Positions 24,964 to 35,817 of a stretch of 64,000 nucleotides of DNA are shown here, piece after piece (position 1 is the stretch's first letter; every line of letters starts with the position of its first letter). This DNA comes from an uncultured bacterium (lineage in GTDB: Bacteria; Omnitrophota; Omnitrophia; Omnitrophales; Abzuiibacteriaceae): contig CAYLXA010000001.1 of the NCBI GenBank assembly GCA_964387845.1, positions 96,001 through 160,000 of the forward strand, read 5' to 3'. Both the position numbers and the translations under genes were made by a program. Under the pieces are notes generated by a model. It was not told where the DNA came from. It was given only the letters and a program-made list of their open reading frames with translations, and searched no databases.

Positions 24964-27900
24964 TTACGCCATTTGTGCGATACGGAGTTCGGAGCGGACT
25001 TGAGCGGTGATAATATTGCTAACACCTGCTACCGAAAGGAGTTCGGTGACGTTTTGGGCGTAACTGACATCAAAACCTTCATAGGAACGAAGTAAGCTTT
25101 CGCCCGGGGCTAAGATAACTTTAATTTGGGTAAAACCTTTTTCGTGAAGTTTATCTTCTACGCGGGACCAATAGGGCGGCATGACTTCGATTTGTTTATC
25201 TTCAGAAAGCCAGTCGTTTACGATTTTCACAATTCCCTTTGAAAACGGTGTATCGTCCACAATCACAACCTTTTGATCGAGTGAGTTCGCAATCCAAAAG
25301 AGGGCTTGCGTGAGATTGTTTTCGCTTTCATCTCTCAATGTTTTTCCTGAAATCGCAAGCGCGATTTGGGTGTTCGAAAGATCGGAAAGCGAAAGATTAA
25401 CAACATTCGCAGCGGCTTCTTTGAGAGCAAAACTAGTTGAGTCCACGTCTGTCTTGATGCTTTGCTCGATTAAAGATTTGAGTTTGCCGAAGATTTCGCT
25501 CGTGAGGACGGTTGTGCTCAAACTACCGAGAGCTGCAATGACTTCATTTGGACGCGCTACAGGCTCTGCATCTTTAACTTTTCGTTTTGCTACCACGCGA
25601 AAGTCGAAAGTGTCAGCCGCATCTGACGATCTCTGCATCACCAAATCAAAAGGACGATCGAGCAGGCTGACTTCTCCTTTGAATGCATCCTGAGTTGTGA
25701 AATCTGGTATCTTTCTGATTTCTTCTACAACCACCCTTTCAACTTGTTTCGCATCGGCGCCGCCCAGCAATTCGGTATTGATATCTGTAATAGAAATACG
25801 AAGTTCGGACTTTGCCGCCACGGTTTGCACGCGCTCTTCCAGCAAAGACCGTTTCTCCTGAACTTGCTGCATTAGCCGCCAGCTGCGGATAAGTTCGGCG
25901 CGCATATCATTGAGCAGCATGCCAAGCTGTATGTTCAAACGATCTAAATGCTCTATGGTTAACCGATCAATCATGTCTTTTGATTCCGGAAGTTTTGGAA
26001 TTTCGGAATATCGGGCCTGATAGTGTTTCTCAACGTCGGAAATTAATAATAAATCGGTTAATTTATCTCCTAATTTGCGTAAAAACTCGGGAGCTTTTGT
26101 TTTGATGCCTTTTGCCTCGAGAATTTGCGCAAGCTTTTCCTTGTCAACCGAGCTGATGTTTGTTCTAGTTTCGCCGACAAATTGATTAATATTGTTGAAC
26201 CGTCGCCTTAATTTTCCTAAAAGCTCCGGAAAATCTTCGCTTTGTTTTGCTTTAATTGCATTGATCTTGCCAGCTCTTCGGCGCTCGGTGCGGCTAATAT
26301 TTCTCAACTCGGAGCGAGGCGATGCTTCTACGGGCTTAGCGAATGCGCGGATAAATTTTTCGGATGATTGAAAAGCTTTGGAATTTTTAAACCGGACCAG
26401 GAGCATGCCTGACTTTCGAGAAGAATCGATAATGATGTGATGGTCATTGATAAAAGCCGTGTGTGTTTCGGCATCGTACAAATCGGCTTCCTCAAAATCA
26501 GTCGGCGGTGTATGTCCTGAGATCAAATACTCGCTTTCTAGCGTAGATAGAAACTGCTCTAAAAATTCAGGTTCATAAAAGCGGTCCCATAAAACATCAT
26601 CAATTGTCCCGTGTAGAATTTTAATTTCATTGACCTGTTCTTTTGATGTGTACGATTGGTTCGGCCCGGCATGCACAAATGCCAAACGATGCTTTGCTTT
26701 ACTCTTGTCTGCAATAGTCAGCACAATCGGCATTTGCCGGATAACGTAAGCCAAATAATTCAAAAGAAAATTGTAAACGGTATTGCTGTCCAATCCGCTA
26801 GCCGACTCAGGCCCGGCGTTGACAAAATCTTCGATCGCATTCTCTAGTTGGCCGGTTTGATCAGTATCAAATTTTCCGGGGCGAGTTCCTCCGGCATGCG
26901 CATAATCATGATTGCCGGGTAATAAATGAACCTGCTTAGGATATTTAATTTTGAGCTGCAATAAAATGAGCAAAGTACGCAGAGATTCCAAATAGGCTTT
27001 CTTGTTCCGCGCTTTTTTTTCATCGATTGTGTGCAAGTAATCGCCGATCGCAACGATATGATTTTTAGGATTTTGAAGGAACGCTTCTTTGCCGAGTTCT
27101 TCGAATCGCTTCGTAAAATTTCCGGTTGCGCCATGCAAATCGCCAAAAACAGCAACCGAATTCACGCCCGCAATTTCGGCCAATGCGCCGGGATCATCAC
27201 CCAGCCATTTGCGCTCACTTTCCGCATAAGATTCGCGCAGAGCTTTTCCCCCGGCTTTCAGAATTGTCATCACTTGATCGGGCGAAACGCCTTCAAGCGC
27301 ATAACCTTCGAGTGGAATGTCTTCCGGTTTATCACTTTCTTCGCGCAATTCTGAGCGCTTGAGTTTGGGCGGTTTGGTGAATTTAATATCAAAGGGTTTT
27401 ACGGCTTCTTCAGGAAGCTGAACTTGATCTAAAAATGCGTTGTATTTTTCCGTCAAACCTTCGGCTTCTAGAAATACCTGGATAGATTCGCTTTGCTTTC
27501 CGATTAAACCCAGAATGGATGATAAGTGGTGATTGCCGACATAAATTTTCGACACTTGGCCGTCTGCTGTTGCAGATTCAAAATTACCGTATGGCCCCGC
27601 CAGCTTGTTCAACTGTTTCAGAATGGATGCGCGCCAATTGAGAATTGTTTTTGGTGCAAGCAGTGAAAAACCGTCAAGTCCATACAGCGAACTGATCGTA
27701 TAGTTGGTCGGTTCGTCTGTTTCGTGAAACGGGAAACCGATTTTGCCTTCGTATTTTTCTGTCGCCGGATCTACGGATTCGGACAAAAACCCGGGAAGAC
27801 CGTTTTGATATGCATAATCCATCGCGGCTTTCAGGAAGTTTTCATAAACGATTTTGAAGCGTTTGTTCTTCATAACATAAGGAACTGCCCAACCCATCTG

Positions 27901-35817: not shown

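Follow-up and report, generated by a model that had tools for sequence, protein, structure and literature searches.

Twelve [R/K/S]SELR motifs in a 3617-residue Omnitrophota protein: a candidate bacterial polyprotein with a junction motif

Why should a single bacterial gene encode the same pentapeptide twelve times, each time at the border between unrelated segments? This question is raised by a locus in a 64,000-nucleotide (nt) stretch of DNA from an uncultured Omnitrophota bacterium (GenBank assembly GCA_964387845.1, contig CAYLXA010000001.1, positions 96,001 to 160,000), which is called the window here. One open reading frame (ORF) of the window, 24964..35817 (-), has a TTG start codon and encodes a protein of 3617 amino acids (aa) that is punctuated by RSELR and close variants. 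A preliminary description had proposed that the product is a polyprotein cut at these motifs. The modular string and the selected junction motif stood up to analysis, and the proposal survived all the tests that we ran; cleavage itself is a step that we infer. On the evidence below, we lean, without strong confidence, towards the view that the ORF encodes a polyprotein that is cut after the final Arg of RSELR.

The repeated motif and the modules between its copies

Translation of the ORF again gave twelve motif copies, namely RSELR ten times and SSELR and KSELR once each, starting at residues 95, 219, 420, 799, 1107, 1711, 2204, 2325, 2821, 3168, 3336 and 3608, and the last copy was indeed followed by IAQMA and the stop codon. 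Eleven of the twelve plus-strand coordinates given in the preliminary description were right, while the fourth copy, placed there at 33399, lies at 33409-33423. The codon variants that it quoted were also found, with Ser encoded by TCN or AGC, Leu by CTN or TTG and Arg by CGN or AGA, and its argument that the copy number is beyond chance was borne out. From the protein's own composition, 0.14 copies of SELR and 0.03 copies of [RKS]SELR are expected, against the twelve found (Poisson P ~1e-19), and in 300 shuffles the maximum for any 4-mer was 5 copies. All SEL and all ELR tripeptides of the protein fall within the motif copies, and no further SELR was identified in the six frames of the window outside them. 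The codons vary, and the DNA flanks of the copies, compared over 36 nt on each side, have nothing in common, indicating that the repeat exists at the peptide level only. Chance, a DNA repeat and a recombination site are ruled out by the Poisson probability and the differing codons. Altogether, these results show that the motif is under selection at the peptide level. The 15-residue flanks of the motif had a modest excess of disorder-promoting residues (p=0.012). An identical protein (P0002) is present in the NCBI and Logan assemblies, both of which may stem from the same data.

Divided at the motif copies, the protein consists of twelve modules (99-604 aa each), numbered 0 to 11, plus a five-residue tail. 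BLAST self-comparison showed that the modules are not paralogous to one another, and no homology-defined domain was found to cross a motif. Hydropathy analysis identified six hydrophobic segments in the whole protein. The N-terminal one is signal-peptide-like and another, at residues 537-555, is borderline. Three of the five internal segments begin 10-14 residues past a junction (P=8e-4 under random junction placement) and the sixth is the second helix of module 7, while no hydrophobic segment follows 8 of the 11 internal junctions.

These three junctions open modules 6, 7 and 8, which, as the preliminary description had recognised, start straight after the motif with export-signal-like N-termini: a lipoprotein signal, a membrane anchor and a twin-arginine-like signal, respectively. 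Module 6 (29194..30672 (-), aa 1716-2208, ending in junction motif 7 at 29194-29208) carries the predicted lipoprotein signal at 30595-30672 (-), with the lipobox LSG-C1741. Counted from the residue after RSELR, the module starts with SNRGKKIPSAVVSILLSIGAASLSG-C, which puts the Cys at product position 26 and conforms to a PROSITE-type lipobox rule. Its HExxH metallopeptidase-like domain (HEMAH, 30115-30129 (-)) matched Peptidase_Mx1 (E=1e-4) and TIGR04549 (E=1.7e-6), both under the curated cut-offs. Module 7 (28831..29193 (-), aa 2209-2329, junction motif 8 at 28831-28845) is a predicted small membrane protein with two hydrophobic helices at 28945-29157 (-). Module 8 (27343..28830 (-), aa 2330-2825, junction motif 9 at 27343-27357) consists of a domain preceded by the twin-arginine-like signal at 28738-28830 (-), which was assigned by sequence motif only, as SRREF followed by a hydrophobic (h-) region and VFA|G. 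Counted in the same way, this module starts with QQDGLSRREFTGRFLGAVAAFLGLGSSVFA-G and comprises a twin-arginine-like n-region, an h-region and an AxA-like end; NCBIfam gave no match to the signal.

The lipobox residue Cys1741 is the only Cys in the 3617 residues, where about 33 would be expected from the 0.90% mean of the other ORFs of the window (P=2e-13). Exported proteins of the window are likewise Cys-poor, with for example 1 Cys in 697 and 1 in 546 residues. All modules are thus subject to one and the same composition constraint. Moreover, the only Cys kept is that of the lipobox, which argues for a functional internal lipobox.

Module 0 (aa 1-99) ends in junction motif 1 (RSELR, aa 95-99, 35521..35535 (-)) and opens with a predicted Sec-type signal peptide at 35734..35817 (-), covering residues 1 to ~28 and ending ...TVAYG|D, with the hydropathy peak at residues 7-25 and the cleavage site assigned by eye. 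Modules 1 (124 aa) and 2 (201 aa) are orphans that end in junction motif 2 (RSELR, aa 219-223, 35149..35163 (-)) and junction motif 3 (SSELR, aa 420-424, 34546..34560 (-)), respectively. Module 3 (33409..34545 (-), aa 425-803) ends in the fourth motif, RSELR, and is the sole module with homologues in other giant proteins. Module 4 (32485..33408 (-), aa 804-1111, junction motif 5 RSELR at 32485-32499) is a helical orphan.

Module 5 (30673..32484 (-), aa 1112-1715, junction motif 6 RSELR at 30673-30687) comprises about eight divergent helix-turn-helix (HTH) units. It matched the Pfam family HTH_11 with 29.1 bits (cut-off 25) and further HTH families weakly. The units were counted by eye and from scattered Pfam HTH matches, the BLAST self-comparison being blind to repeats. 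They are arranged in tandem, highly divergent and roughly 52-55 aa each, an unusual architecture for DNA-binding domains. Module 9 (26302..27342 (-), aa 2826-3172, junction motif 10 at 26302-26316) is a calcineurin-like, PPP-type metallophosphatase domain, as judged from a Pfam match at 26506-27156 (38.7 bits) and weak PDB matches to Ser/Thr phosphatases. The chain closes with two orphans, the helical module 10 (25798..26301 (-), aa 3173-3340, junction motif 11 KSELR at 25798-25812) and module 11 (24967..25797 (-), aa 3341-3612), which ends in junction motif 12 (RSELR, 24982-24996) before the IAQMA tail. Beyond modules 5, 6 and 9, no module gave a Pfam, NCBIfam, PHROGs, PADLOC or PDB match. 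Profile-profile comparison of module 8 with the Glycoamylase protein of the window gave a probability of 1.9%.

Relatives of the protein and conservation of the junctions

We searched residues 1-1111 exhaustively with phmmer against 1.84 billion cluster representatives, which returned the protein itself (P0002) and two others, P0003 and P0004. The sole close relative of this region is P0003 (MBI4388206.1, 926 aa), from the Omnitrophota metagenome-assembled genome (MAG) GCA_016206995.1, whose gene has lost its 5′ end at a contig edge. P0004 is a Logan protein of 6939 aa (loci L005-L007, for example L005:6924-27743). Homology to both is confined to module 3, which is 36-38% identical to residues 414-741 of P0003 and 24-26% identical to residues 5288-5642 of P0004.

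The module-3 homologue in P0003 has RSELR at both ends, and the SSELR of the window protein (motif 3) corresponds to RSELR at the homologous junction. The check that the preliminary description had suggested, namely whether a related giant ORF keeps the motif at module boundaries, thus came out in its favour at both shared junctions. Of the 10 motif residues at these two junctions, 9 are identical, compared with 7 of the 100 residues in the flanks (25 on each side); between the two genomes, syntenic housekeeping proteins are only 52% (nadC) and 56% (glycoamylase) identical. P0003 carries additional copies, one RSELR plus RAELR and RSALR, again with varying codons. The modules bounded by its motif copies measure 83-326 aa and have no relation to the modules of the window protein; modules are thus shuffled between the two proteins. 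In a small membrane module of P0003, the hydrophobic segment begins 6 residues past the motif, and the 926 aa of P0003 contain no Cys at all.

P0004 neither backs nor cleanly refutes the junction idea, as another repeated element follows its module-3 homologue after 4 residues. At residues 5642-5662 this protein has G-P-G-F-I-A-S and a transmembrane segment, and three times (residues 781-800, 1293-1312 and 2324-2343) it has R-x-R-P-G-F-A-L-V followed by a transmembrane segment. These elements resemble prepilin (G|F) or PGF-type sorting signals, and no NCBIfam sorting-signal model matched the PGF and transmembrane repeats. A GDSG serine-protease motif lies near residue 2136 of P0004.

The homologues of module 8 are stand-alone exported proteins. 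They comprise P0001 (682 aa), which has a lipoprotein-type signal, and hypothetical proteins encoded on Planctomycetes plasmids, for example WP_068422777.1 (704 aa), which has its own signal peptide. In these homologues about 50-60 residues precede the conserved core, and in module 8 the same distance separates the core from the end of RSELR. No further relatives of the polyprotein were identified in GTDB genomes, JGI metagenomes, viral contigs or phage records. A word-index search with modules 8-9 returned P0001 only, and one with a chimeric query of the remaining modules and the rest of P0003 returned the protein itself only. A hidden Markov model of the 12 motif contexts gave no matches, an uninformative result since HMMER cannot sum score over a 5-residue motif in long targets.

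Proposed processing and the competing explanations

Where along the motif might a cut fall? We placed it after the last Arg because all conservation lies N-terminal of that bond and the next residue is free to vary; conservation on one side only is typical of endopeptidases that read P5-P1. The signals point to the same bond, as the lengths of their n-regions are canonical only if the N-terminus is the residue after RSELR. Moreover, the residues there avoid those of bacterial N-degrons, which occur at 1 of 17 positions after the motif (p=0.011, in a test picked after viewing the data). Cleavage would occur in the cytoplasm, since the lipobox and the twin-arginine signal need to be presented from the cytoplasmic side. 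With no cleavage, the chain would run from the N-terminal signal through 1700 residues to the hydrophobic segment of module 6, and the lipobox Cys and its n-region, rich in Arg and Lys, would end up on the wrong membrane face, an argument that relies on the hydropathy segments and the positive-inside rule.

The wider proposal, which we put forward tentatively and with slightly more doubt than conviction, is that some Omnitrophota make unrelated proteins as one polyprotein that is cut at [R/K]SELR by a dedicated Arg-specific endopeptidase. For this ORF, in the interpretation towards which we lean, one translation product would hold twelve unrelated proteins, each ending in [R/K]-S-E-L-R, and the endopeptidase would read the non-prime side and cut after the last Arg, during or shortly after translation. 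Each product would then have its own N-terminus and its own destination. Module 0 would give a Sec-exported peptide; modules 1-5 and 9-11 would give soluble proteins, including the HTH array and the PPP-type phosphatase; module 6 would become a lipoprotein metallopeptidase, module 7 a small membrane protein and module 8 an enzyme-like protein exported by twin-arginine translocation (Tat). The protease would probably be encoded elsewhere in the genome. The preliminary description had offered the embedded HExxH module as a candidate for this role, which we find unlikely in the cytoplasm, as the module is a predicted exported lipoprotein; it is probably not the processing protease. A cysteine protease within the ORF is impossible, given that the only Cys is that of the lipobox, and module 3 was rejected as a protease as it has no invariant Ser, His or Cys.

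Several observations weigh against the polyprotein interpretation. Apart from the HExxH module 6, the ORF has no peptidase match in Pfam or NCBIfam; no GDSG-type motif was found in it, there is no spare Cys for a cysteine protease, and the 64-kb window holds no protease or peptidase gene. The last motif lies 5 residues from the end of the ORF, where there is nothing to separate, and the last module of P0003 is without a terminal motif. Only two motif-bearing proteins were found, one of them partial, and P0004 has a module-3 homologue yet lacks RSELR and has a normal Cys content. Before any cut is made, the N-terminal signal peptide could engage the Sec channel and draw the chain into it. The scarcity of Cys, which is all but missing, suggests that all modules are extracytoplasmic, which is awkward for HTH and phosphatase products in the cytoplasm. 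Finally, AlphaFold2 models of modules 9-11 (single sequence) and module 8 (two sequences) were both unusable, with predicted local distance difference test (pLDDT) values of 36 and 37.5, so that the placement of the motifs in linkers rests on sequence heuristics.

One explanation that we regard as unlikely, though it fits several of the data, is that the giant protein stays uncleaved, as a membrane-anchored scaffold in which RSELR is a short linear docking motif in the linkers; the preliminary description had named a repeated sorting or docking signal as its alternative. In its favour, one copy lies next to the C-terminus, where a cut would separate nothing, the motif lies in linker-like sequence, and Omnitrophota have very long membrane-associated proteins whose processing is unproven. 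Candidate partners, again with low probability, would include chaperones, assembly factors and a kinase that acts together with the PPP-type phosphatase of the protein itself, and a phosphatase module is indeed present. However, lipoprotein and twin-arginine signals act at N-termini, and here their n-regions start exactly past the motif, while the topology of an uncleaved chain would conflict with the orientation of the lipobox and with the positive-inside rule. A strict phospho-acceptor is also unlikely, as the RAELR and RSALR copies of P0003 have Ala in place of Ser and of Glu, respectively. Moreover, the modules are mutually unrelated and shuffled between relatives, which fits poorly with a scaffold.

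We consider it rather improbable that the polyprotein leaves the cytoplasm whole, by way of its N-terminal signal or another secretion route, and that RSELR is cut only later, whether in the periplasm, on the cell surface or inside a prey cell. In favour of this idea, Cys is almost absent from both motif-bearing proteins, as it is from other exported proteins of the window, and the whole ORF opens with a Sec signal. Omnitrophota are thought to be host-dependent or predatory. The embedded metallopeptidase-like module could conceivably, and with no greater probability, perform the cut, in the manner of gingipain or MARTX precursors. However, a twin-arginine signal and a lipobox would be useless once the chain is outside, and the cytoplasm is where Tat cargo folds. 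We found no RTX repeats, no cysteine protease domain, no C25 peptidase, no type IX secretion system (T9SS) C-terminal domain and no secretion-system genes.

It is unlikely that the modules are translated separately. Their production apart from one another by internal initiation, by 2A-type ribosomal skipping or by mRNA cleavage at the junctions would account for the independent N-termini but has no direct support, and we give it very little credence. An in-frame ATG, GTG or TTG with a Shine-Dalgarno sequence was found at 0 of 12 junctions, so that separate products could arise only by proteolysis. The RNA at and around the motif is unconserved, the motif has none of the Pro/Gly features of skipping peptides, and we know of no 2A-type skipping mechanism in bacteria. 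A chance pattern, a DNA repeat and an artefact of assembly or annotation can practically be dismissed, given the Poisson probability, the differing codons, the identical ORF in NCBI and Logan assemblies (possibly the same data) and the second genome with the motif at homologous junctions.

Genomic setting, meaning and comparison with known systems

The ORF lies between hom and aspA, and its neighbours are housekeeping genes. On one side are hom, thrC, an apgM-type mutase and aspartokinase, and on the other a small ferredoxin, aspA and a 2-oxoacid:ferredoxin oxidoreductase. LptC and a lipid A acyltransferase are encoded in the window, indicating a diderm envelope, and the RND/HlyD_D23/OEP neighbours in the window are of the CusA/CzcA metal-efflux type. 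A sigma-70-like promoter match, TTGCCA-17-TACTAT with TG, was identified by consensus only at 35852..35880 (-), 5′ of the TTG start. The GC content at third codon positions is 0.448, about 2 standard deviations under the window mean and like that of other non-housekeeping genes of the window. The nearest genome as judged by hom, a Candidatus Omnitrophota MAG (locus L001, 57% identity), carries the hom-thrC-mutase operon, but the giant ORF is missing from this position, and the 21 kb examined there contain no SELR. The assignment to the phylum draws on this hom match and on the source name of P0003. No PHROG, phage or viral-contig matches were found. Mobile-element cargo or a polyvalent protein was rejected, as the flanks are hom, thrC, aspA and the oxoacid oxidoreductase and the only plasmid matches are the Planctomycetes homologues of module 8.

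A nadC and PF10091 glycoamylase pair of the window (12611-14704 (-) and 14701-15540 (-)) is syntenic with L004:4360-7270 of MAG GCA_016206995.1. In that MAG the gene of the RSELR protein and an AsmA-family gene lie directly upstream of the pair, where the window has valS. These different upstream genes indicate that the polyprotein gene occupies different chromosomal positions in the two lineages.

Other features of the window were also recorded. Intergenic palindromes built from the 7-nt units AAGTGGT, AAGTGAT and AAGTTGT as inverted repeats lie in at least four places, at 18228-18314, 21106-21177, 24863-24957 and 35929-35988, and the pattern AAGTGGTAAG, with up to 1 mismatch, had 20 matches against 1.9 expected. 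They occur on both flanks of the giant ORF and between other genes, and they look like genome-wide REP-like or terminator elements. The small ferredoxin ORF between aspA and the giant ORF encodes about 73 aa (36000-36219 (-)), too few for ORF calls with a threshold of 120 aa or more, and is preceded by a 42-nt AT-rich inverted repeat (36229-36358). A second large protein of the window, Cys-poor and probably surface-located, is encoded at 48298-54060 (+); its 1920 aa include a DNRLRE domain, a PKD-like domain and eight InlB B-repeat (Flg_new_2) units.

Bacteria normally co-express proteins through operons, not polyproteins. If the polyprotein interpretation holds, the locus would represent another route to equal production and joint inheritance of unrelated proteins, and the first case of a cellular prokaryote that expresses a polyprotein in the manner of a virus. 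A sequence-specific protease would then still await discovery, possibly one of use as a tool in biotechnology. The locus would also provide the first concrete cleavage-site rule for multi-module or giant proteins of Omnitrophota, whose cleavage becomes a testable question once a junction motif is defined, and related giants such as P0004 may rely on other junction signals. A 2026 preprint on Omnitrophota discarded internal signal-peptide calls as artefacts; if the interpretation is right, signal peptides within long ORFs are not necessarily prediction artefacts.

The view of the preliminary description that no bacterial system with this motif has been described agrees with the full-text literature. 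No paper linking "polyprotein" with Omnitrophota was found there, and RSELR was not found as a junction or cleavage motif but only among the catalytic motifs of PL7 alginate lyases and as the name of an R package. We rejected PL7 alginate lyase, with its R[ST]ELR catalytic-region motif, as an explanation, as no module has an alginate-lyase Pfam match. Polyprotein processing as such is known; to our knowledge, the setting, the motif and the make-up of the modules are undescribed.

Among bacterial systems, the gingipain and HagA precursors of Porphyromonas (RgpA, Kgp) are likewise cut after Arg or Lys between domains. Their adhesin domains are related, and their processing by a C25 cysteine peptidase takes place on the cell surface once T9SS has exported them, whereas Pfam and NCBIfam identified neither a C25 peptidase nor a T9SS C-terminal domain here. 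MARTX and large clostridial toxins are also large bacterial proteins whose heterologous modules are freed by cuts in linkers. These multi-effector toxins are self-processed after Leu by an inositol-hexakisphosphate-activated cysteine protease domain and are associated with RTX repeats and a type I secretion system; the window protein has no Cys to spare, no RTX and no cysteine protease domain, and its modules carry bacterial export signals. The FbcH cytochrome b/c1 precursor of Bradyrhizobium likewise contains in its interior a signal peptide of the N-terminal type, which serves to free a downstream exported protein. That precursor, however, consists of two functionally linked partners that are split by signal peptidase with no junction consensus, whereas here twelve unrelated modules mostly have no hydrophobic segment after their junctions. 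Multi-core precursors of ribosomally synthesized and post-translationally modified peptides, eukaryotic prohormones and nematode polyprotein precursors share with this protein a short recognition sequence at the end of every unit, for example the KR sites of Kex2, but they repeat one short peptide or domain, while here the units are different full-size proteins with their own targeting signals.

Within the same phylum, very long multi-module ORFs have been described. The Omnitrophota giants (Archaeovorin and dockerin types) exceed 30,000 aa, with many transmembrane helices and C39 or S8 peptidase, dockerin or SecA-like domains, and their cleavage was proposed but left as an open question with the cleavage points unknown (West-Roberts et al. 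2023, bioRxiv 10.1101/2023.11.21.568195). The window protein differs from them in its 3617 aa, its 5-6 hydrophobic segments, the absence of all those domains and its explicit junction motif.

The closest parallel in layout is found in viral polyproteins, for example those of picornaviruses and flaviviruses, in which one ORF encodes unrelated proteins, the junction consensus is read on the non-prime side, internal signal sequences occur and some products have their own membrane or export signals. The gene described here differs in being a chromosomal bacterial gene with no viral context and no recognisable embedded cytoplasmic protease. As in a polyprotein, its single ORF holds several independent proteins, with distinct domains in modules 5, 6 and 9, and a selected motif at each module boundary.

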